DNA of 64,000 bases, taken from a virus. The DNA is taken from the IMG/VR virus record IMGVR_UViG_3300014205_000222; one strand, given 5' to 3'. Both the position numbers and the translations under genes were made by a program. Shown here piece by piece: positions 31,073 to 52,741 of this stretch. Numbering within the stretch: the stretch's first letter is position 1; each line of letters opens with the position of its first letter. A model generated the notes under the pieces. It saw only the letters and a list, made by a program, of their open reading frames with translations, had not been told where the DNA came from and made no database searches.

Positions 31073-33514
31073 TTATTCTGGTTTCCTTACAATCAAGAAA
31101 GAAACCACACCAAGACCAATCAGCGCAATTAACGCACCAAAACCCGGAGATTTCGGAGTTTCCGTTGGAACCACAGTTGGGTCAGGGGTTATGACCGGAG
31201 TTGGTACTTCGGTTACTACGGTTGTCGGCTGCGTTGTCGGCGGGGTTGTTGGAGGCGGTGTTGGTGTAGGAGTTGGTGTAGGAACAAACGCTACCAAGTC
31301 AAATACGCTGCTTCCAGACACGGAAACAACAATACCCGTAACCGAAACACGGTATTCGTCTACCTTAAACCCATCGGTATCAAACTCATACACAAACTTA
31401 TTGGCAGACTGTCCACCATCGACAACCTTCACAACGCTGCTGCTACCGCTAAACGTTCCCGGAGCAACTTTGTCGGTCGGTTTGAACGAAGATGAAAGCA
31501 CTTCTACAAGAATTTCATTCCCAACTGCAAGATTTGTGGTTCCAGTTACAGTAACCATATCTCCAACAGCCTTGCGCGGGATATTTGTGATGCTAATGTA
31601 TGGAGCTTCTATAATGAAACTGTTCTGAACATACAAATCGTCAACCGATGGATCGTTAATTGCATTTATTAAAGCAGTTGCTGCTTCAGACGACTGAAGG
31701 CTTCCAGAACCCTGTACCTTGAACTTTGTGTTCCCATATACAGGATACGTTCCTACAACAAGATCTCCGGATTTCCACACGTCAAACTGGTTGTTATACA
31801 TTGGGTGTTGAACAACAACATAATACTGACCATCTGCAAGATTGCCGGTATCCCCGCGTGTCAGCTTAAGTTCGTATGACGCATCATCATCAACAGAAAC
31901 CTGCTTTACCAACACATAATTCTTACCGAAAATCCAAACCATTACACCAGATGCTGAGTCTGTTCCTGCAGAACCGGCGACGATAATCTCATCGCCCCGT
32001 GCTGCGTTTTTAGGAGTAACTTCGGCACTCAACGTTGGCTTGCGAACAATAATCGATACTGTTGCATACTGTATGCCCTGTAAATTATCCCTGTTCCGAG
32101 GCTCGGAAACAGCATATACAGTATATGTTCCAGAATCAATTCCTATAGCGTCCGTTCTCCACTTGTAATCATACGAATCGTCTTCGCGGACATCTGCATT
32201 AACCATGTTTGAAACATTGATTGGTTCACGCGGCGAATCTAACTTTCCGCCAGCATTTGGAAGATTCGGTCCAGTTATAAAGAAATACGTGCTTTCAGTT
32301 TCAGTGTTTACACCAGCAAGTACAATCTCATCGCCAAGATAATATGAATTTTTATCGGTTACCAACGAGAGTTGCCCGGTGCTTACAGTCACTGTAACCT
32401 CACCCGATTTATACTCGCTGCCAAACTTATTTTCGGCACGAATGGTGTATCGTCTGTCCTGTGTGTCGCTGTACGTCTGGAAACCAATAGTTCTCTTACC
32501 AGAAGAATCTGTAGTTACCGTTGCAAAATATTTTGCATCACCGTTTGGAACACTTGCATCAATACGCTTACCACCCTCGGTAATATACCCCGGGTTTGCT
32601 CCAATCGAAACACCATACTGGTTCGATATAATTACAGGGGCCGGGTCTGTCTGTGTAGATTTTACAAACACATGATATTCCGTGTTTGGCTGACCAGTTA
32701 CCGTAACCGAAAATGCACCTCCACGGGTTACACTTGCAACATTCGACTCGACACGAATCCCTTCGGATGCAATAAAGAATGTTCTGACTACAGATTTTAC
32801 ATCCAAACTATTAACCCCGCACGTCGCATGAACCTTATATTCTCCGGCAGGGTATAACCGCGCAGAACCAGAACGAGCATCCAAATTCCATGCATCATTA
32901 GCAACTTTGTTTGCCCAATAAAACAGGGAACCAGTTAACGGAACGTTATCGATACTGCGATCACCATTTATTGTCACGAGTTTGTTATATACAGAACCAC
33001 TCGGTGCGGCAACCCTGATATCAAAATCAAACGCCTCTGTTGAATTTACATTCCGCGCGCGAATAAGATGCAGGTTAGACTCAACCCTGAAATCAACGCG
33101 CGATGTTCTGGCAATGCTTTCTCCGTCAACACGTTTGTCTGCCGGAATATCCCAAATCAGAACGTTAATCTGCGGGTTTTCGACATAGAATGCAACTCCG
33201 TGCGAAGTGCTACCATCCCACCGATACCATGCATCTGTTCTTCCAGTGAACGTTGATGGCGAAACATAGAAATCTGTCTTGCCAGTAACATCAACGACTC
33301 GCCCCGGCGAATCTATAGACGGATTCGAACCAGATGGGAACCATGCAATTTTATCATAACTGCCTACGGCAGCAGATATATCCAAACTTTCTTCCCCGAT
33401 GAACACCGTTCCCTCTTGCGCAACAGTGCTATAAGCTCCAGCAGAAACCGGAGCAGCTAAAGCAAAAGCCGCGAGGATCAGTGCAACAACCATAATTGAA
33501 AAATTCGCTTTCAT
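31073..33514 (-). CDS. large secreted cell-surface protein with Ig-like/beta-rich repeats, PT-rich linker and PGF-CTERM archaeosortase sorting signal
   Basis: Start at 33514 (GGTGGGAG SD, signal peptide MKANFSIMVVALILAAFALAAPVSA); C-terminus …PTPTPTPTPPPTTPPTTQPTT…PKSPGFGALIALIGLGVVSFLIVRKPE = PGF-CTERM; listed ORF start 33646 over-extended. Confidence 0.7.
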   Translation of the reverse strand: MKANFSIMVVALILAAFALAAPVSAGAYSTVAQEGTVFIGEESLDISAAVGSYDKIAWFPSGSNPSIDSPGRVVDVTGKTDFYVSPSTFTGRTDAWYRWDGSTSHGVAFYVENPQINVLIWDIPADKRVDGESIARTSRVDFRVESNLHLIRARNVNSTEAFDFDIRVAAPSGSVYNKLVTINGDRSIDNVPLTGSLFYWANKVANDAWNLDARSGSARLYPAGEYKVHATCGVNSLDVKSVVRTFFIASEGIRVESNVASVTRGGAFSVTVTGQPNTEYHVFVKSTQTDPAPVIISNQYGVSIGANPGYITEGGKRIDASVPNGDAKYFATVTTDSSGKRTIGFQTYSDTQDRRYTIRAENKFGSEYKSGEVTVTVSTGQLSLVTDKNSYYLGDEIVLAGVNTETESTYFFITGPNLPNAGGKLDSPREPINVSNMVNADVREDDSYDYKWRTDAIGIDSGTYTVYAVSEPRNRDNLQGIQYATVSIIVRKPTLSAEVTPKNAARGDEIIVAGSAGTDSASGVMVWIFGKNYVLVKQVSVDDDASYELKLTRGDTGNLADGQYYVVVQHPMYNNQFDVWKSGDLVVGTYPVYGNTKFKVQGSGSLQSSEAATALINAINDPSVDDLYVQNSFIIEAPYISITNIPRKAVGDMVTVTGTTNLAVGNEILVEVLSSSFKPTDKVAPGTFSGSSSVVKVVDGGQSANKFVYEFDTDGFKVDEYRVSVTGIVVSVSGSSVFDLVAFVPTPTPTPTPPPTTPPTTQPTTVVTEVPTPVITPDPTVVPTETPKSPGFGALIALIGLGVVSFLIVRKPE

Positions 33515-33660
33515 AGTCAATATCTTCTCCCACCGGGTTTTTTTCAAACACCCGGTGTCGTGTTTTACCACATAACAGATAATATTTCTAATTTCACATA
33601 TATAAGAGTTACGATAAATGATAAAATTATCAAACCAATGCGACAAAGAAATAATATTTA

Positions 33661-36759: not shown

Positions 36760-37065
36760 ATGATACTATCACATGACAGATGCGACCACCACCCTGTAAC
36801 ACTCGACGAATCGAACATGACAGTGAAGGAATTAAAAGAGCAAAGAAACTTTCTGAAATTTGTATTCAATATTAAATACAAACAAGAAAATTTAGAAAAC
36901 ATCCGACGTTTGGGATATATCACTCCGCAAGCAGATACAGTTTTTCGATGTGGAAGCAATGGTGCATATATCTGGAAAACAAACCAAGAAGAAATAAAAA
37001 ATTTGATAGACAGAATTTCACTGGAGATAATTAAACGAAATAAAAATATACGAAATAACTTATAG
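36760..37065 (+). CDS. hypothetical protein (101 aa) between tRNAs
   Basis: ORF track; stop overlaps 3' end of next tRNA by 3 nt. Confidence 0.35.
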   Translation: MILSHDRCDHHPVTLDESNMTVKELKEQRNFLKFVFNIKYKQENLENIRRLGYITPQADTVFRCGSNGAYIWKTNQEEIKNLIDRISLEIIKRNKNIRNNL

Positions 37066-37145
37066 GTGTGATGGGATTTGAACCCACATACACTAAAGAC
37101 CGATTTTAAGTCGGTTCCCTAACCAAGTTCGGGATACACACACCC
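37063..37145 (-). tRNA. tRNA-Leu-UAA: tRNA-Leu(UAA)
   Basis: Acceptor GGGUGUG/CACACCU, T-arm GUGGGUUCAAAUCCCAU, anticodon loop CUUAAAA. Confidence 0.7.
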
Positions 37146-41597: not shown

Positions 41598-43028
41598 ATG
41601 GTAATTAAAAAACAATCTCACAAAACTATAAAAAAAACATCGAAAGTTACACCCGCGCGCATTAAAAAAAGAATAATAAAAAGGAAAAAACGAATAAACC
41701 CGGAACAAATACCGCGCACTGCTCATAACATAACCTCAATGTTGAATCGACATGGTGCAACATGTTATATTGTAGGCGGATTCCCACGAGATACAATTCG
41801 AGGAATTTCTGCCAAAGATATAGATATTGAAGTGCACGGGTTAGATATCGACACTATAGCACAAATCTTGTCAAAACACTTTTCAGTAAATTATGTCGGG
41901 AAATCGTTTGGCGTGCTTAAAGTCAAAGAACCCGGTTCAACCGAGGAAATAGATGTGTCTGTACCGCGCGCAGACAGTGTTGGAAGAAAACCAGATGTCA
42001 CGTTTTTCAAAAATGCAACCCCAAAAGACGCAGCTTCAAGAAGAGATTTTACAATTAATGCTTTAATGTGGGATACAAAAACAAACACAATGGTTGACCC
42101 ATATGGTGGTATGCAAGATTTAAAATCTGGAACAATACGTTCAATATCCCAAAAAAGTTTTACAGATGACCCTCTCCGAGTTGTACGCGCTGCACAGTTT
42201 GCATCGCGGTTTGGCTATTCAATTGAACCTGAAACCGTTACCATGGCAAAACAATCTACACTACATGGTCTATCGATGGAACGTATACGTGAAGAAATGT
42301 TAAAAGCATTATTAAAGAGTAAAGCCCCATCAAGATTTTTCAATTCTCTCGATGGCATGGGGCAACTGTCTGCAGTTTTTCCAGAAATAGCAATTTTAAA
42401 ATCTATACCTCAAGATGAATATCACCACCCGGAGGGAAATGTATATACCCACACAATGATGGTTCTAGACCGTGTTCCAAACGACCCTATACTACGTTTA
42501 ACAGCATTACTCCACGATACTGGAAAGGCAGTCACGACATCAAACTCCAATGGGAGAATAAAATCGATTGGACACGAAAGACAAAGCACGATAATTGCAG
42601 AGAGATTTCTGCGCAAATTCAAATTCGACAACGCAACTATAAAAATGGTTTTGCCACTTGTAGATAACCACATGATTCCCGGGTTTTTGATAAATTCCGG
42701 AACAAAAATAACACTAGCAAAAAAGAACGCACTTATCGCACGCGTAGCCGGTGGTTATTCAAAAATTATGCGCGACCCACGAGAAGCACTAGAAAAATAT
42801 AAATATTTAATATCATTTGCAATTGCAGACCATGGTGCGGATTACTACAGCGACAAATTCTTGACACTCCCTCCAATACAACACTACGTATCCCACATCG
42901 ATGCACGCGCGCTTTCTGAAAAATACCAAGGAAAAGCACTCGGAGATGCGATTGTCGAGAGATATACAAACCAGATAAATACACCACCAAAACAAATGCG
43001 AAAAATGAGAAAGTTAACGAAGAGATAG
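41598..43028 (+). CDS. cca: CCA-adding tRNA nucleotidyltransferase, class II (bacterial/eukaryal type) with HD phosphohydrolase domain
   Basis: GGFPRDTIRG…AKDIDIEV head motif; HD motifs HHPEGNVYTHT and LLHDTGK; 476 aa. Confidence 0.8.
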   Translation: MVIKKQSHKTIKKTSKVTPARIKKRIIKRKKRINPEQIPRTAHNITSMLNRHGATCYIVGGFPRDTIRGISAKDIDIEVHGLDIDTIAQILSKHFSVNYVGKSFGVLKVKEPGSTEEIDVSVPRADSVGRKPDVTFFKNATPKDAASRRDFTINALMWDTKTNTMVDPYGGMQDLKSGTIRSISQKSFTDDPLRVVRAAQFASRFGYSIEPETVTMAKQSTLHGLSMERIREEMLKALLKSKAPSRFFNSLDGMGQLSAVFPEIAILKSIPQDEYHHPEGNVYTHTMMVLDRVPNDPILRLTALLHDTGKAVTTSNSNGRIKSIGHERQSTIIAERFLRKFKFDNATIKMVLPLVDNHMIPGFLINSGTKITLAKKNALIARVAGGYSKIMRDPREALEKYKYLISFAIADHGADYYSDKFLTLPPIQHYVSHIDARALSEKYQGKALGDAIVERYTNQINTPPKQMRKMRKLTKR

Positions 43029-43251: not shown

Positions 43252-43325
43252 CGGACGCACGGAGATTTGAACTCCGACAAACAGATTAAGAATCTGTGAT
43301 GCAATCCAAACTACATTATACGTCC
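43252..43325 (-). tRNA. tRNA-Lys-CUU: tRNA-Lys(CUU)
   Basis: Acceptor GGACGUA/UGCGUCC, D-stem AUGU/GCAU, loop UUCUUAA, T-arm CGGAGUUCAAAUCUCCG. Confidence 0.75.
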
Positions 43326-43659
43326 AAATTGTACAGGGGGTTGCACCACCGGTTGGTTTGAGCTCTTTACCATCCTGAAACGTGCATCATCCAAACATAG
43401 AACTTTGTGTACACCTAAACATAGACCCCTGCACAAAATAATATATGCATTCAAGATATTTAAATCATTCTATCACAGATTGTTTTTGGGATATATTTTA
43501 CCGCATCGAAATAACAAGCCACACAAAAAAACAATAATATAGAGCGACAATTGATGTTATAATCACAATTCCAACAATAAAGACAGAAAATGGACATATT
43601 ATCACATCCCCCCGGGAAGTCACTCCTATCGGTTCACACGTCAAATAAATTGTCATCTA

Positions 43660-43730
43660 CGGGCGCGAGGGGAATCGAACCCCCTCTATCGGATTAAAAG
43701 TCCTGTGTGCGACCACTACACTACGCACCC
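43660..43730 (-). tRNA. tRNA-Lys-UUU: tRNA-Lys(UUU), weak anticodon stem
   Basis: Acceptor GGGUGCG/CGCGCCC, D-stem GUGU/GCAC, loop CUUUUAA, T-arm GGGGGUUCGAUUCCCCU; two mismatches at top of anticodon stem. Confidence 0.55.
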
Positions 43731-43733
43731 AAT

Positions 43734-43806
43734 TGTCCGGTCAGGATTTGAACCTGAGTCGCCAGATCATGGGTCTGGTATTCTGTACCAAGCTATACCA
43801 CCGGAC
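43734..43806 (-). tRNA. tRNA-CAU: tRNA-Met/Ile2(CAU) with C33
   Basis: Acceptor GUCCGGU/ACCGGAC, anticodon stem CCAGA/UCUGG loop CCCAUGA, T-arm UCAGGUUCAAAUCCUGA; long D-loop. Confidence 0.55.
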
Positions 43807-43984
43807 AACGATGTGTGCGGTGCCCGATTAAGCACATCCTCTCGGGCACCATTTAGCAGGTTTTACGTTTCGAAACCTATTGCTGTTAAACGTAGCCACG
43901 TTATTAACGAATAAGGGCAAGACGAGTGTTTTTTAGGTCACACTTAAACGACCCCCCACAACATAGTGCTACATGTGTGAGGAA
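43807..43984 (-). ncRNA. structured 178-nt spacer inside tRNA array (candidate small RNA / processing element)
   Basis: Perfect 9-bp hairpin GGUGCCCGA…UCGGGCACC (43819-43856), palindrome CGUUUCGAAACG within AGGUUU…AAACCU hairpin; no ORF. Confidence 0.3.
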
Positions 43985-44961: not shown

Positions 44962-45038
44962 TCGGTGTAGTGGGATTTGAACCCACGGCTTTCCGGTTCG
45001 CACCCGGACTGTCTAAATCCAGACTGACATATACACCA
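44962..45038 (-). tRNA. tRNA-Arg-GCG: tRNA-Arg(GCG) (archaeal-type Arg isoacceptor)
   Basis: Acceptor UGGUGUA/UACACCG, anticodon stem UCCGG/CCGGA loop GUGCGAA, T-arm GUGGGUUCAAAUCCCAC; 5' end +/-1. Confidence 0.65.
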
Positions 45039-45117: not shown

Positions 45118-45192
45118 TGTCCCGAGTGGGATTTGAACCCACAGCCATTTGCTTGCAAAGCAACCGTTCTACCGGGTTGTAACTATCGGGAC
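45118..45192 (-). tRNA. tRNA-UGC: tRNA with anticodon UGC (Ala-decoding) but lacking G3:U70
   Basis: Acceptor GUCCCGA/UCGGGAC (all Watson-Crick), loop UUUGCAA, T-arm GUGGGUUCAAAUCCCAC. Confidence 0.6.
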
Positions 45193-45945: not shown

Positions 45946-47472
45946 TTAAATTTTTGTTGTTGGGATTTTGAAATTTTCAATTTCCTGTATCATTGTCTCG
46001 CGGTTTGTCTCGAAGAGGCTTATATAATTGAATATCTTATCACTGTATCCAGCAACATTAACTACATTTTTATGACCTTCTGGTAACGTTGCAAGCCCAT
46101 ATCCTGCGAGATCTACAAGATACACGAACACATTTGGATTTATATTCCTCTGATATTTTAGAAACTCTTTTACAAATGATTCTGAACCATATGCCGATGT
46201 ATTATACAGCACCATATCACTGAAAAGCACAACCCGGTCAACAAACTTTTTGTTATCGTTGAGATACCGAATTGCCTTCCAACCATTTGTAGAGTGCCCA
46301 AGATGCTGTTCTGTAACACTTTCGATATTCTGTAATATTGAGCTGCCACCCATTGGGATAACCGCAAAATCTGTTCCAAATGCTGAAATAATAGATTTTG
46401 TCGATATATAATCCAATATAGACCCGTACAGAGATGCAACCTGCGCGCGAGATACCACAGATTTTTCACTGAGGGCAACCGTCATACTACCACTAACATC
46501 AATCGATGTAAATGTGATACCACCAAGTTTTGGAACATTATTTAAACTAATTTGTAGAGCCTTCTCCAAGCCTTTCAAAACCACATTAACGTTTTCCGTT
46601 GCTACATCGTATTTTCTAGTTTTTACAATAGAATGCGCCGTATAAAACCTGTATGGGAATTGTTTTGATGACCGTATGGCACGTTCATCTACAATGCGCG
46701 ACATATAAAGTTCTGGTTCGATTCCAAACTTAAGAAAATTATTTAGATTACGGAGTAGCGCCATATACCCCATGTCGGGGATTTCCTTTTCCCAATTTTC
46801 TTTGGTAGAACCTTCACGCATTATGTTAGCATTCCACGACGAATTAACAACCTTTTTGTTGATAATTCTTTCAAAGACATCAGCCATATCCTTATTCAGC
46901 GGTTTTGGGTGGACGACGCACATCGCGTCTTTAAGGCTTACACTCGACCCATCACCGAGATACTTACCAAACTGATACTCATCGAAATTATAAAAAGCGC
47001 GTGATAAACCCTTTTTAAGAACCATTGGTACATGTGCACGAGCCTTTTCATTATGCGAATTCAACTGAAACTGATACGCCAGCATTTCAGTAATTTCGTC
47101 AGGTCTCTGAATTGTAGAGGTAACAATTTTACTAAAATCGTTGTGACCTTTGCCAGACGGAAGATTTGCAGCTTCCACTAACAACATGATAGGAACGGTA
47201 CGAAGATACAAGTTGTGGCGCACATATGCCGCAAGATTAAACACAAACTTCGGGTCTAATTCGGTGACTTCTCGGATTAAGTCTTTAAGTTCTTTATCCG
47301 ATTGTGTAGCACTGGTATAAAACTTTGGCTCACCGACCATTGCAGATGCAACACGAAGGTAAAGTTCCAATTTCTTTGACACATTAAACGCGATTCCGCC
47401 TTCAAAATTAGTTGTTACATCGCCACGTGATTCTAAAACGCTTGTTGTCGTTTTTTTCGTATTAAACTTCAT
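45946..47472 (-). CDS. rsr: Ro60/Rsr-like TROVE-domain RNA-binding protein with C-terminal vWA/MIDAS
   Basis: 508 aa; N-terminal …NFEGGIAFNVSKKLELYLRVASAMVGEPKFYTS… resembles TROVE start (N.AGG.AF…RL.RFLILGS…TYY); C-terminal DVSGSM MIDAS motif; AAGGTG SD upstream. Confidence 0.65.
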   Translation of the reverse strand: MKFNTKKTTTSVLESRGDVTTNFEGGIAFNVSKKLELYLRVASAMVGEPKFYTSATQSDKELKDLIREVTELDPKFVFNLAAYVRHNLYLRTVPIMLLVEAANLPSGKGHNDFSKIVTSTIQRPDEITEMLAYQFQLNSHNEKARAHVPMVLKKGLSRAFYNFDEYQFGKYLGDGSSVSLKDAMCVVHPKPLNKDMADVFERIINKKVVNSSWNANIMREGSTKENWEKEIPDMGYMALLRNLNNFLKFGIEPELYMSRIVDERAIRSSKQFPYRFYTAHSIVKTRKYDVATENVNVVLKGLEKALQISLNNVPKLGGITFTSIDVSGSMTVALSEKSVVSRAQVASLYGSILDYISTKSIISAFGTDFAVIPMGGSSILQNIESVTEQHLGHSTNGWKAIRYLNDNKKFVDRVVLFSDMVLYNTSAYGSESFVKEFLKYQRNINPNVFVYLVDLAGYGLATLPEGHKNVVNVAGYSDKIFNYISLFETNRETMIQEIENFKIPTTKI

Positions 47473-47514
47473 TTAATTCACACCTTGGAGATAAGCTACC
47501 ACACATGTTTTAAA

Positions 47515-47841
47515 TGGATTTCATTGAATGATAACAGTTTTTTCAGTCATATGGTTTGTCCGCCCGGACATAATATGTTCAAGTCCAATCCACCCCACAT
47601 ATTATTTTTGCAGGATTTCATCGAATTATAACAGGGTTTTCAGTCGGTTATAGGAAATAATATCACTTGGTAATGCGATGAACCCACAACCTGCGCATCC
47701 CTGCTTACTGGGAGAACTTATGAACGACTTAAACTTAAACTTAATCTATAACGCATTTCGGTGGGTTTTCAGACGAACATGGCAAAATACCTTGTTTAGA
47801 GGTAGAGTTCCACAATGATGAAACCACGTTCTGCGCATCCC
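47515..47841. repeat. tandem imperfect repeats in rsr-upstream noncoding region (candidate Y-RNA-like ncRNA genes)
   Basis: Units 47634-47701 and 47763-47841 share termini GGGUUUUCAG[UA]C … GAUGAA[CA]CCAC…CUGCGCAUCCC; extra copies of GGATTTCAT[TC]GAAT[GT]ATAACAG at 47515 and 47613; degenerate unit ~47536-47600. Confidence 0.55.
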
Positions 47842-47959
47842 ACTCCAATGCAACAATATTATTGTGTAACTAATAGTATATATACATTTCCAAACATTTC
47901 ACGAAAAGCATGTAAAAATTACACATATGCAGATATTATCAACCCGCACGTTAAAAAAA

Positions 47960-48289
47960 TTAATTTGTTGGAGGGTCGGCGCGCGTGTCAAGTTCCATTT
48001 TCTTTTCTAAATCTGAACCAGATTTATATGATAAAACCGCAAATGCGCCACCGAAGATTAACAAAAACAACCCTTGCGCCGTAAATACAAATACACTGTT
48101 AGCTGACACACCACCAGATGAAATTGCCGCAGCAACAAATGCCAGCATCACAATTCCCAAAAGCACAAAAATCAACCCTACCCCGGTCAACATGGCAAAC
48201 AGACTCATACGCATGTTGTCATTTTTTTCATTATCATAATCACGTATTTCTTCATATACGATTTCGCGAATTTTCTTTGCTTTAACCAT
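47960..48289 (-). CDS. 2-TM membrane protein (109 aa)
   Basis: ORF track. Confidence 0.4.
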   Translation of the reverse strand: MVKAKKIREIVYEEIRDYDNEKNDNMRMSLFAMLTGVGLIFVLLGIVMLAFVAAAISSGGVSANSVFVFTAQGLFLLIFGGAFAVLSYKSGSDLEKKMELDTRADPPTN

Positions 48290-48876: not shown

Positions 48877-48948
48877 TGGGCGTTAAGGGAGTCGAACCCA
48901 TATCCTCACGGTTATGAGCCGTGCGCTCCGCCATTGAGCTAAACGCCC
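48877..48948 (-). tRNA. tRNA-Met-CAU: tRNA-Met(CAU), elongator-like (G1-C72)
   Basis: Acceptor GGGCGUU/AACGCCC, D-stem GCUC/GAGC, loop CUCAUAA, T-arm AUGGGUUCGACUCCCUU. Confidence 0.75.
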
Positions 48949-51134: not shown

Positions 51135-51206
51135 GGGAGATGGAGGGGATTGAACCCTCTCCAGCGCGGTCACAGCGCGCCGTGCTACCAATACACCACA
51201 TCTACC
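51135..51206 (-). tRNA. tRNA-His-GUG: tRNA-His(GUG) with genomically encoded G-1
   Basis: Anticodon stem GCGCG/CGCGC loop CUGUGAC, T-arm GAGGGUUCAAUCCCCUC, 8-bp acceptor incl. G-1:C73 (one U.C mismatch). Confidence 0.7.
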
Positions 51207-51209
51207 ACA

Positions 51210-51289
51210 AGCACTGGGCAGGAATCGAACCTGCAACCCACATGGAGCAGATCTGCAATCTGCCGCAATATCCATTCTGCCACCAGTGC
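51210..51289 (-). tRNA. tRNA-Cys-GCA: tRNA-Cys(GCA) with unusually long (12-nt) variable region
   Basis: Acceptor GCACUGG/CCAGUGC, D-stem GCAG/UUGC, loop UUGCAGA, T-arm GCAGGUUCGAUUCCUGC. Confidence 0.6.
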
Positions 51290-51296
51290 AATTTGA

Positions 51297-51368
51297 CGCC
51301 CCTGATGGGAATTGAACCCATTTCTTCAGGTTCGAAGCCTGATATGCGTTCCGGTGCACCACAGAGGC
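51297..51368 (-). tRNA. tRNA-Arg-UCG: tRNA-Arg(UCG)
   Basis: Acceptor GCCUCUG/CAGGGGC, anticodon stem UCAGG/CCUGA loop CUUCGAA, T-arm AUGGGUUCAAUUCCCAU. Confidence 0.75.
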
Positions 51369-51400
51369 AGTGCATATACTATATATTCAAACCACTATAT

Positions 51401-52000
51401 TTATTTTTTTGTGTTCTGTCGTTTTTTCTTTGGAGTTGGTGCTTTTAAACGTCGCTCATTTATCAGTTTCGTATCTAAAATCTTTAATTTTTTCGGGTCA
51501 AATGCAATAAGATGTTTAACACCACCATGTTTTTGTATGAGAACCCCATCGTAGCCCAAGCTTACCATATTTTTAAGATATACTTCTGGCTCATCCCTAT
51601 AAAAATCATAAGACACAGTTTGAAATGCATCATGAGCCGTCTGATTATATGTTAAAATTAATCTATATGCATTTTCAAACGCTGGAACGTGTCTATCTGT
51701 ATCAAAATTTGTCAGGGTGTCTTCTAAATTTGGCGCACGAATCAACATCTTTCGAATATCCCCATGGTTGGGGGGGCGTGTAGTTGACACAAATTTTCTA
51801 ACTGTTGCTCGTACAACCATAATATATTTTCCATACATACGAGCATCATCTATCGTATTTGTTAAATAGAACCCATAACCCTCCTGTTCAGTTCCTTTCC
51901 CAAGATATTTATATTCAAATTCTCTGAATGGAACATTTGAACCATGATAAAATAATTCTGAATACAACACATATAAATATATGTTACAATAATATATCAA
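51401..52000 (-). CDS. hypothetical protein (199 aa) with basic C-terminal tail
   Basis: ORF track; no confident family (weak resemblance to ADP-ribosyl/phosphotransferase folds not supportable). Confidence 0.45.
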   Translation of the reverse strand: MIYYCNIYLYVLYSELFYHGSNVPFREFEYKYLGKGTEQEGYGFYLTNTIDDARMYGKYIMVVRATVRKFVSTTRPPNHGDIRKMLIRAPNLEDTLTNFDTDRHVPAFENAYRLILTYNQTAHDAFQTVSYDFYRDEPEVYLKNMVSLGYDGVLIQKHGGVKHLIAFDPKKLKILDTKLINERRLKAPTPKKKRQNTKK

Positions 52001-52005
52001 ATTTT

Positions 52006-52167
52006 CTAATCGTTATGTTTTGACGATATAATTTTAGGGCATAATTCTTCGGTTAAAACATATTGGCAATTGTATTTCCCGCCATTTTGTTCCAGTTGGT
52101 TCTCAAAACACTTTTCACACGATAAAACAATTTTTCGAATAATATCACAATTTATATCACTTATCAT
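52006..52167 (-). CDS. small Cys-rich protein (53 aa; listed ORF start 52218 overlaps tRNA)
   Basis: Internal Met MISDINCDIIRKIVLSCEKCFEN…; ends 3 nt before tRNA-Gly. Confidence 0.35.
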   Translation of the reverse strand: MISDINCDIIRKIVLSCEKCFENQLEQNGGKYNCQYVLTEELCPKIISSKHND

Positions 52168-52169
52168 AA

Positions 52170-52240
52170 TACGAGCGGCGGGCATCGAACCCACACCTGT
52201 TCCATGGCAAGGAACCATTCTACCATTATACTACACTCGT
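52170..52240 (-). tRNA. tRNA-Gly-GCC: tRNA-Gly(GCC)
   Basis: Acceptor ACGAGUG/CGCUCGU, anticodon stem GUUCC/GGAAC loop UUGCCAU, T-arm GUGGGUUCGAUGCCCGC. Confidence 0.65.
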
Positions 52241-52243
52241 ATA

Positions 52244-52316
52244 TGCGCCCAGCCGGGTTTGAACCGGCATCTATAGGTTGGAAGCCTATAATTCTAACCA
52301 ATTATACCATGAGCGC
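52244..52316 (-). tRNA. tRNA-Gly-UCC: tRNA-Gly(UCC)
   Basis: Acceptor GCGCUCA/UGGGCGC, anticodon stem AUAGG/CCUAU loop CUUCCAA, T-arm GCCGGUUCAAACCCGGC. Confidence 0.7.
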
Positions 52317-52319
52317 ACA

Positions 52320-52393
52320 TGGACGTGAGAGGACTTGAACCTCTAACCCCTGCTGTATCAGAACAGTGCGCTAACCAATTGCGCCACACGTCC
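52320..52393 (-). tRNA. tRNA-Ile-GAU: tRNA-Ile(GAU)
   Basis: Acceptor GGACGUG/CACGUCC, D-stem GCGC/GCGC, loop CUGAUAC, T-arm AGAGGUUCAAGUCCUCU. Confidence 0.8.
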
Positions 52394-52396
52394 TAA

Positions 52397-52468
52397 CGTC
52401 CGGTGCGGGTACTGCCCCCGCCTCATAACCGTGACAGGGTTATATGCTGTCTAATACACCAACCGAAC
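52397..52468 (-). tRNA. tRNA-Asp-GUC: tRNA-Asp(GUC) with non-canonical T-loop (GGCAGUA)
   Basis: Acceptor GUUCGGU/ACCGGAC, D-stem GUGU/GCAU, anticodon stem UAACC/GGUUA loop CUGUCAC, T-stem GCGGG/CCCGC but loop lacks U54-U55; keeps the array's 3-nt spacing. Confidence 0.55.
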
Positions 52469-52471
52469 AAA

Positions 52472-52537
52472 ATGGGTGGTGCCGGAGTTGAACCCAACAC
52501 TTTTACCACCATGGGTGGATCAATCCCCATGGCACCC
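52472..52537 (-). pseudogene. degenerate tRNA-like element
   Basis: Correct 3-nt spacing; T-loop UUCAACU and 3' ACCACCC-A but T-stem and acceptor pair poorly (5/7); only ~66 nt. Confidence 0.3.
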
Positions 52538-52668
52538 ACGGAGCATCCCTAATACAATACGCATGTATTTCCGTCTTTTACGTGCATGCATCCGGAAACA
52601 CGGCAAGATCGTTGTCGGGTCTTGTACCGCCATACAATAAGATTGCGACTCTTTGCATTGTATGGAAA

Positions 52669-52741
52669 TCCTCCCGGAAGGATTCGAACCTTCTTCGCCG
52701 GATTCAAAGTCCTGCATCATTACCAAGTAGACCACGGGAGT
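52669..52741 (-). tRNA. tRNA-Gln-UUG: tRNA-Gln(UUG)
   Basis: T-arm GAAGGUUCGAAUCCUUC, loop CUUUGAA, D-region GGUCUACUUGGUAAUGAU like eukaryal/archaeal tRNA-Gln; acceptor (A)CUCCCG/CGGGAG(G) with first-pair mismatch. Confidence 0.65.

Follow-up and report, generated by a model that had tools for sequence, protein, structure and literature searches.

In this study, a 64,000-nucleotide (nt) stretch of viral DNA, the IMG/VR record IMGVR_UViG_3300014205_000222 (the window), was found to encode an RNA that is probably the virus's working tRNA-Asp with a rebuilt elbow. U54-Psi55-C56...A58 (Psi, pseudouridine) and G18-G19 are near-invariant across RNA biology, and it is on these nucleotides that tRNA gene finders rely. 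The RNA described here would be a natural, conserved tRNA of cytosolic type in which four elbow nucleotides are replaced and the aspartate (Asp) identity is intact. tRNAs with non-standard elbows are already known, and the viral Asp RNA is a new variety of them. Its neighbour, a 68-nt element, is on the evidence of its sequence a conserved tRNA-like RNA. The window is AT-rich (G+C, 38%), matches a 181.6-kilobase (kb) metagenome contig, JGI 3300037067 Ga0378408_0000108, and a 64-kb ENA contig, and is part of a ~180-kb virus of an archaeon. The Asp-like RNA and its main features are as follows:

52397..52468, minus strand: non-canonical tRNA-Asp(GUC), 72 nt (minimum-free-energy fold; covariation over five genomes)
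52433..52435, minus strand: anticodon GUC, its loop of 7 nt having U33 and, at position 37, a purine (invariant in five of five genomes)
52410..52416, minus strand: T-loop GGCAGUA, that is G54 G55 C56 A57 G58 U59 A60 (sequence; consensus of the relatives, GGCRGNA)
52448..52455, minus strand: D-loop AUUAGACA, which has one G and is read as A18 G19 (sequence; comparison with the D arm of tRNA-His)

The RNA reads GUUCGGU UG GUGU AUUAGACA GCAU A UAACC CUGUCAC GGUUA UGAG GCGGG GGCAGUA CCCGC ACCGGAC G. Its minimum-free-energy fold is a cloverleaf with an acceptor stem of 7 base pairs (bp), a D stem of 4 bp that includes G10·U25, anticodon and T stems of 5 bp each, a 4-nt variable loop, and the discriminator G73. 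The original prediction, made from the letters of the window, had described a perfect cloverleaf whose T-loop reads GGCAGUA and lacks U54-U55; sequence and fold agree with it exactly. A pairing between GGCAG of the T-loop and CUGUC of the anticodon loop was considered and set aside, being sterically impossible within an L-shaped tRNA and probably coincidental (~6% chance expectation by our own estimate).

Relatives were reached, on contigs of other metagenomes, through proteins homologous to the neighbouring primase (69-70% identity) and to Ro60 (59%); L039 is the closest, and L004, L005, L008 and L040 are further related loci. Orthologues of the Asp-like RNA were found in the same place as the window copy in four of them:

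L039, 3309-3380: Asp-like orthologue
L004, 14754-14824: Asp-like orthologue
L005, 11442-11512: Asp-like orthologue
L008, 7037-7107: Asp-like orthologue

Across the five genomes, whose flanking proteins are 59-70% identical, the stems of the RNA vary and the loops are invariant. Pairing is kept in 99% of cells, and 8 of the 21 pairs are changed on both sides; the covariation score was reached by none of 500 shuffles, and shifted registers pair in 30-53%. U8, the segment UGGUGUAUUAG, A21, G10·U25, U33 G34 U35 C36 and G73 are the same in all five, position 37 is A or G, and the T-loop G54 G55 C56 R57 G58 N59 A60 is kept in the window, L039, L004, L005 and L008. The compensatory changes and invariant loops indicate that the Asp-like RNA is not a pseudogene and is under purifying selection; on this comparison, its decay is essentially excluded. 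A covariance model built from the five sequences found exactly one copy per genome (90-97 bits). The next matches were ordinary tRNAs at no more than 37 bits, with tRNA-His first, and no paralogue with another anticodon was found among them. Outside this virus clade, exact and degenerate pattern scans of IMG/VR, JGI metagenomes and 185,579 species genomes gave no Asp-like RNA; the 24 metagenome pattern matches have no cloverleaf and were taken as chance.

The Asp-like RNA does not show the combination of T-loop U54 U55 C56 R57 A58 and D-loop G18 G19 for which it was tested, while a UUCRAnn T-loop and GG in the D-loop are present in all 30 of the other window tRNAs. ARAGORN made no call on the window copy even at a 70% threshold, where it returned more than 200 false calls, and the Rfam tRNA model left it unreported, including in a 301-nt search at E<=10. 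The orthologue in L008 (T-loop GGCGGAA) was called as tRNA-Asp by ARAGORN; that in L004 reached 38.8 bits against the Rfam tRNA model when 281 nt were searched and was missed in the whole-locus search. These two results indicate that the Asp-like RNA is homologous to tRNAs but prone to be lost by standard filters; standard tools under-count the tRNA complements of viruses. The gene also lies in register within the array, where 3-nt spacers separate the 68-nt element from the Asp-like gene, the latter from tRNA-Ile, tRNA-Ile from tRNA-Gly, and tRNA-Gly from the next tRNA-Gly. In L005, from which the 68-nt element is absent, the Asp-like gene follows 2 nt after tRNA-Gln.

The helix lengths, the 7+5-bp acceptor/T stack, the 7-nt anticodon loop and the U8-A14-A21 core of the Asp-like RNA are normal. 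The changes are G18 to A and U54, U55 and A58 to G; position 57 is still a purine, and C56 and G19 are unchanged. When the D arm of tRNA-His, GGUGUAUUGGUAGCAC, is set against that of the Asp-like RNA, GGUGUAUUAGACAGCAU, the alignment suggests that the single G of the D-loop is G19 and that A has replaced G18. In such an elbow the G19-C56 pair would be retained, A18/G55 would stand in place of G18/Psi55, and a G54·G58 purine-purine pair would take the place of the U54·A58 reverse-Hoogsteen pair. Given these proposed contacts, the RNA would still be L-shaped, would be charged with Asp and would read GAY codons. This elbow may be tolerable in translation, because eukaryotic initiator tRNA carries a purine-purine A54·A58 pair (PMC7912444) and because tRNA-Pyl (Pyl, pyrrolysine) and the synthetic scaffold YtRNA offer precedents; translation tolerates tRNAs with a canonical U8-A14-A21 core and non-standard D/T-loop contacts (PMC6337575).

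The Asp determinants are known to be G73, G34 U35 C36 and G10 (G10·U25 in the eukaryotic type), with C38 in the bacterial type, and yeast tRNA-Asp variants stripped of their D and T arms remain substrates for aspartylation under those identity rules (PMC9976931). In the Asp-like RNA, G73, G34 U35 C36 and G10·U25 are invariant, and C38 is found only in the window and L039. The remaining tRNA genes of the window, which all lie within 36.5-52.8 kb on the minus strand, number 28 by ARAGORN and 30 by the Rfam tRNA model (29.6-67.4 bits); the Rfam set includes two that are extra to the ARAGORN set:

43252-43325, minus strand: Lys(CUU)
44962-45038, minus strand: Arg(GCG)

A further ARAGORN candidate at the 70% threshold, Ala(AGC) at 43326-43396, has no T arm and was treated as noise. 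The virus thus carries its own near-complete tRNA set: the anticodons of the 30 tRNAs cover 19 amino acids, and the sole gap is Asp. No canonical tRNA-Asp was found in the window by ARAGORN at lowered thresholds and in intron mode, and the L039 array holds no other Asp tRNA. The original prediction had been silent on the place of the Asp-like RNA as the only Asp tRNA of the window, on its conservation and on an archaeal host. As a working tRNA-Asp, the RNA offers a test of the need for the elbow in RNase P cleavage, CCA addition, and recognition by elongation factor, ribosome and modification enzymes.

Comparison with known systems shows where the viral RNA is new. tRNA-Pyl of Methanosarcinaceae and some bacteria, likewise a natural tRNA with a non-standard elbow, is a ribosomal tRNA without the G18-Psi55 and G19-C56 inter-loop pairs (PMC6337575). 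It keeps U54-A58, whereas the viral Asp RNA keeps G19 and C56 and alters positions 18, 54, 55 and 58. tRNA-Pyl is also marked by a D loop of ~5 nt, a 3-nt variable loop, a 6-bp anticodon stem and 0-1 nt separating the acceptor stem from the D stem; a compact core of this type was rejected for the Asp-like RNA, which has a D loop of 7-8 nt, a variable loop of 4 nt, an anticodon stem of 5 bp and the linker U8 G9. The YtRNA scaffold, which supports aminoacylation and suppression in cells (PMC6337575), resembles the viral RNA in being of class I with a canonical U8-A14-A21 augmented D helix and non-standard D/T contacts. It differs in being man-made, with a tRNA-Pyl T loop and Tyr identity, whereas the viral RNA is natural, conserved and of Asp identity. 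Eukaryotic initiator tRNA-Met has a purine-purine 54·58 pair (PMC7912444), as proposed for the viral Asp RNA, but keeps Psi55/C56 and G18 G19; it also has A1:U72 and, in its anticodon stem, three G:C pairs. The original prediction held that all of the departures it listed have been described in viral tRNA arrays; our literature searches did not bear this out, giving no viral tRNA with a G54 G55 ... G58 T-loop.

Several points weigh against a working tRNA-Asp. The L040 lineage has lost the gene, the sample is small (five sequences from one virus clade), and a canonical tRNA-Asp is possible elsewhere in the genome, since ~84 kb of the 181.6 kb were covered. In addition, few nucleotides in biology are as conserved as U54, Psi55, A58 and G18. 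The Asp-like RNA alone in the array lacks them, which makes a specialised non-ribosomal role a real alternative. The RNA might then be a conserved tRNA mimic that the altered elbow excludes from translation. As a decoy or sponge it might draw off a host nuclease directed at tRNA-Asp or a tRNA-binding defence factor; it might instead donate Asp in a non-ribosomal reaction, or work as a partner with the viral RNA-repair and quality-control genes. Its surroundings are in keeping with such roles, as it lies among RNA-handling genes (Ro60/TROVE, CCA-adding enzyme, metallophosphatase, NT5C/PNK-like, RlaP and ART-PolyVal) and is linked in relatives to a DUF3800-X RNA and the tRNA-like RNA. An anticodon-nuclease decoy, however, would require the anticodon arm only, and the viral RNA retains the full identity set for aspartyl-tRNA synthetase, a normal anticodon loop and normal helix lengths. 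Staphylococcal tRNA-Gly species that serve cell-wall synthesis have altered T loops and avoid EF-Tu, which counts for a mimic. These non-proteinogenic species and metazoan mitochondrial tRNAs, which co-evolved with dedicated translation machinery, have non-consensus T/D loops and are still aminoacylated; they come from other organisms and have other loop sequences than the viral Asp RNA. Considering also that Asp is exactly the amino acid missing from the rest of the set, a mimic excluded from translation appears rather unlikely.

A working tRNA-Asp with this elbow would evade those host factors and enzymes by which U54, U55, A58 and G15 are read or modified, and we infer that such evasion may be the selected benefit. 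The altered elbow could be an adaptation that creates a private viral tRNA, unseen by a host factor that reads the canonical T/D elbow, although we consider this unlikely. Candidates for such a factor are defence nucleases directed at tRNAs, modification enzymes and quality-control pathways, and servicing of the tRNA would fall to the viral class II CCA-adding enzyme and the Ro60/RlaP repair genes. An Ala-anticodon tRNA(UGC) without G3:U70 in the same window could belong to this strategy, via altered charging or GCA recoding. If true, this would be the first virus to evolve a tRNA elbow or the alanine identity pair as an arms-race target. Viral tRNA variants that replace host tRNAs attacked by anticodon nucleases, such as T5 tRNA-Lys against PARIS and the tRNAs of mycobacteriophages, are a possible parallel to the altered Asp elbow and to the stem mismatches of the window's tRNA-Lys(UUU). 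To our knowledge, these nuclease-resistant phage tRNAs are bacterial only and are altered in the anticodon stem-loop, not in the T/D elbow, and we know of no such anticodon-nuclease defence for the archaeal host here.

The 68-nt element next to the Asp-like gene is the following:

52472..52539, minus strand: tRNA-like RNA, 68 nt (minimum-free-energy fold, orthologues, covariation)

It was first reported as a degenerate tRNA-like element of ~66 nt that follows tRNA-Asp at the exact array spacing. The spacing of 3 nt stands, but on the transcribed strand the element lies upstream of the Asp-like RNA, and "degenerate" describes the T arm of the window copy rather than the element overall, which is conserved with compensatory changes. 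It consists of a 7-bp acceptor-like stem (GUGGGUG/CACCCAU), an adjacent 7-bp side hairpin with UGAUC in its loop, an 8-nt linker in place of the anticodon arm, and an extended T arm with the canonical loop UUCAACU. Orthologues are found in L039, L004 and L008; the T arm is perfect in L004 and L008 but is weakened in L039 and the window, where it has a bulge and two U·G pairs. In an alignment hand-trimmed to the three helices, pairing is 100% and 11 of 19 pairs are changed on both sides, counts that are biased towards the structure because the trimmed alignment was fitted to it. Four of the seven acceptor-like pairs are among those changed on both sides between the window and L004.

The loop of the side hairpin varies from 6 to 10 nt across genomes, with UGAUC as the sole conserved motif and no conserved anticodon, and the acceptor and T helices stack to 14-15 bp, not 12. 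These features indicate that the element is a conserved tRNA-shaped RNA rather than a tRNA. A D-armless tRNA was rejected on the same variable loop length and missing anticodon, and tRNA-Sec (Sec, selenocysteine) was rejected with only a 23-bit match to the L008 copy. A Y RNA was likewise set aside, as 52380-52680 gave no YrlA or Y_RNA match and the element ends in an acceptor-like stem and lies ~5 kb from the Ro60 gene. The element resembles the tRNA mimics mascRNA/MALAT1 and YrlA, in which an acceptor-like stem and a T arm occur with no decoding. RNase P and RNase Z cuts in mascRNA form the end of the neighbouring RNA, and YrlA accompanies Ro60. The viral element differs in that no Rfam match to YrlA or mascRNA covers it, and its terminal stem is acceptor-like, not Ro-binding. 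By analogy, its likeliest role would be in processing: as a punctuation module that tRNA end-processing enzymes cut, it would define the ends of its neighbours.

In three relatives, the element is itself preceded by an RNA of a known family:

L004, 14601-14674: DUF3800-X RNA (Rfam RF02984), 44.3 bits (gathering score 38.2)
L008, 6884-6957: DUF3800-X RNA, 38.8 bits (gathering score 38.2)
L039, 3133-3201: weaker copy of DUF3800-X RNA, 30.1 bits (below the gathering score of 38.2)

Within the tRNA array of L004, L008 and L039, the DUF3800-X RNA lies directly 5' of the tRNA-like element, which is followed by tRNA-Asp. The equivalent stretch of the window gave no convincing alignment; the RNA is not recognisable there and was taken as lost. 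No Pfam match to a DUF3800 protein was found in the open reading frames adjoining the DUF3800-X RNA. The DUF3800-associated RNAs have no known function (PMC5737381). In the window, the stretch that separates tRNA-Gln from the tRNA-like element holds a 29-nt block, GGCGGUACAAGACCCGACAACGAUCUUGC (52603-52631, minus strand). It is identical in L008 except for the first base and nearly identical in L039; L004 has instead a hairpin with other stem bases.

Four further tRNAs of the window had been singled out as departing from the canonical form:

51210..51289, minus strand: tRNA-Cys(GCA), 80 nt, with U73 and G37 (ARAGORN and Rfam, 56.8 bits)
45118..45192, minus strand: tRNA(UGC) with an Ala anticodon, C3:G70 and A73 (Rfam alignment, 57.1 bits)
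43660..43730, minus strand: tRNA-Lys(UUU) with anticodon-stem mismatches C27·A43 and A28·G42 (Rfam, 53.9 bits)
43733..43807, minus strand: CAU tRNA with loop CCCAUGA (C33, G37), U1:A72 and A73 (Rfam, 49.6 bits)

Each of the features claimed for them was recovered: the 12-nt variable region of tRNA-Cys, the missing G3:U70 of tRNA(UGC), the mismatched anticodon stem of tRNA-Lys(UUU), and C33 in the CAU tRNA, which carries G37 as well. Software scores, proposed originally as a check on these genes, are ordinary for the array in all four, which goes part of the way towards the refutation foreseen in the original prediction; the deviations at the level of identity are still real. The variable region of tRNA-Cys, UCCAUGUGGGUU at 51235-51246, exceeds the class I norm of 4-5 nt. 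In L039 it is 13 nt long with the same CC...GG ends, and U73 and G37 are as in the window. By this comparison the long variable region is a conserved lineage trait.

The same holds, on sequence grounds, for C3:G70 of tRNA(UGC), whose acceptor stem is identical in L039 and has no G·U pair anywhere. This tRNA is the sole Ala-anticodon tRNA of the set; it has the A73 of alanine tRNAs and lacks G3·U70, the alanine determinant in all three domains (PMC9976931). An unusual alanyl-tRNA synthetase, absence of charging and mischarging are candidate explanations, and the tRNA(UGC) without G3:U70, being kept in two genomes, could serve to test the alanine rule much as the Asp-like RNA could for the elbow. 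If this tRNA, the C33/G37 CAU tRNA or both carried a non-cognate amino acid, the virus would recode GCA or AUG/AUA. The conserved absence of a universal determinant from the only Ala-anticodon tRNA is what such recoding would draw on, but the sequence shows no recognisable alternative identity set, and the proteins that were scanned include no viral aminoacyl-tRNA synthetase. Alanyl-tRNA synthetases independent of G3:U70 exist, as in human mitochondria (via PMC9976931), and tRNA(UGC) may just stay uncharged. Recoding is therefore quite improbable.

The CAU tRNA has the anticodon stem CCAGA/UCUGG and a normal T loop. Vertebrate and plant initiators also have C33, but the viral tRNA shows no initiator signature, having neither A1:U72 nor a C1·A72 mismatch nor three G:C pairs at 29-31/39-41, and was rejected as an initiator. 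No orthologue of the C33 CAU tRNA or of the mismatched tRNA-Lys(UUU) was found on the relatives' CCA-enzyme contigs that were scanned, which hold only Ser and Leu tRNAs; the scan left out further L040-lineage contigs of the same sample series. The 17-nt C33 anticodon arm had 18 exact matches in IMG/VR, none of which gave an ARAGORN tRNA call and whose flanks look coding. For tRNA-Lys(UUU), the stem of the L040 orthologue is fully paired, which indicates that the mismatches are recent and lineage-specific.

The mismatches of tRNA-Lys(UUU) bear on a further account, raised in the original prediction, in which the aberrant genes are decaying pseudogenes that arose by duplication within the array. 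Besides these mismatches, which are absent from L040, decay could explain the weakened T arm of the window's 68-nt element (the bulge and two U·G pairs), the loss of the adjoining DUF3800-X RNA, and single acceptor-stem mismatches in tRNA-Gln(UUG) and tRNA-His. The compensatory substitutions and invariant loops of the Asp-like RNA and the 68-nt element across 4-5 genomes lead us to reject it for both, and the conservation of their odd features in L039 makes it unlikely for tRNA-Cys and tRNA(UGC). As a general explanation, decay is hardly credible; it is plausible for tRNA-Lys(UUU) only, and perhaps also for the T arm of the window element. The original prediction had also listed decoys, regulators and mischarging or recoding tRNAs; a decoy, regulator or mischarging role is conceivable, and as an interpretation the list is supported in part. 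The mismatches mentioned are A1·G72 in tRNA-Gln(UUG) (52669-52741, minus strand), where relatives have A1-U72, and U2·C71 in tRNA-His (51135-51205, minus strand), in which G-1 and C73 are present. A mismatch in the acceptor stem also occurs in tRNA-Leu(UAA) (37063-37143, minus strand; 38.6 bits), which has an unstructured variable region of 11 nt.

The tRNA identity features, an intron in a relative and a sorting-signal protein point to an archaeal rather than a bacterial host. In the window, tRNA-Tyr is of class I with C1:G72, and tRNA-Gly and tRNA-Trp have A73, which fit the archaeal and not the bacterial rows of the identity table (PMC9976931). The window's Lys G73 and Thr U73 are also consistent with archaeal tRNAs. 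The tRNA-Met(CAU) of L039 (6633-6782) contains a 77-nt intron in its anticodon loop, which folds as helix, 3-nt bulge, 4-bp helix, 3-nt bulge and helix, the archaeal bulge-helix-bulge splicing motif; the window orthologue (48877-48948) is without the intron. One window protein adds to this:

31073-33646, minus strand: 857-amino-acid protein with DUF3821 and a PGF-CTERM sorting signal

Together with glycosyltransferase and PMT_2 genes at 24537-27084 of the window, this protein is evidence for a euryarchaeal host. L039 also encodes a histone-fold protein and a DUF7123 protein. Among isolated phages no close relative was found; the best matches were one 71-nt DNA match and primase matches at 21-26% identity.

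The tRNA genes are accompanied by genes for RNA-handling proteins:

41598..43028, plus strand: class II CCA-adding enzyme with HD domain (PolyA_pol head), inside the tRNA region (Pfam, PHROGs)
45946..47472, minus strand: Ro60/TROVE RNA-binding protein, between tRNA clusters (Pfam TROVE, phrog_850)
51401-52000, minus strand: ART-PolyVal ADP-ribosyltransferase, between two tRNA clusters
21019-21837, minus strand: RlaP, an RNA-repair-associated nucleotidyltransferase, farther from the tRNA genes

Genes for a metallophosphatase and an NT5C/PNK-like protein also lie among the tRNAs, and the ART-PolyVal, RlaP, Ro60, phosphatase and PNK-like genes together suggest a theme of RNA damage and repair. 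The virus adds to the few known archaeal viruses with near-complete tRNA sets, here with Ro60 and RNA-repair genes as well. The CCA-adding enzyme, kept at 63-65% identity in related viruses, is of the bacterial/eukaryotic type, yet the virus appears archaeal; archaeal hosts have class I CCA-adding enzymes.

Just upstream of the Ro60/TROVE gene is a conserved module, GUGGG-AUGCGCA-GAACGUGG ... variable top ... CCAUGUUC-GUCUGAAAA-CCCAC. It lies at 47473-47960 (minus strand) of the window, especially at ~47761-47843 and from ~47703, at ~9182-9420 of L039 and at ~4582-4660 of L040, with two copies in the window, two in L039 and one in L040. RNAalifold predicted a stem of 5 bp, an internal loop and a helix of 8-9 bp, one pair being compensatory, and the top of the second copy in L039 resembles a T arm (24-bit partial match to the Rfam tRNA model). 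No match to any Rfam Y RNA family was found for these modules, which are candidate Y-RNA-like partners of the viral Ro60. In L008, an IS200/IS605-type element with a Y1 transposase and an OrfB/TnpB-like gene (4630-6162) lies just upstream of the tRNA-Gln/tRNA-Asp cluster, and TnpB-like genes are present in L046 and L047 too.

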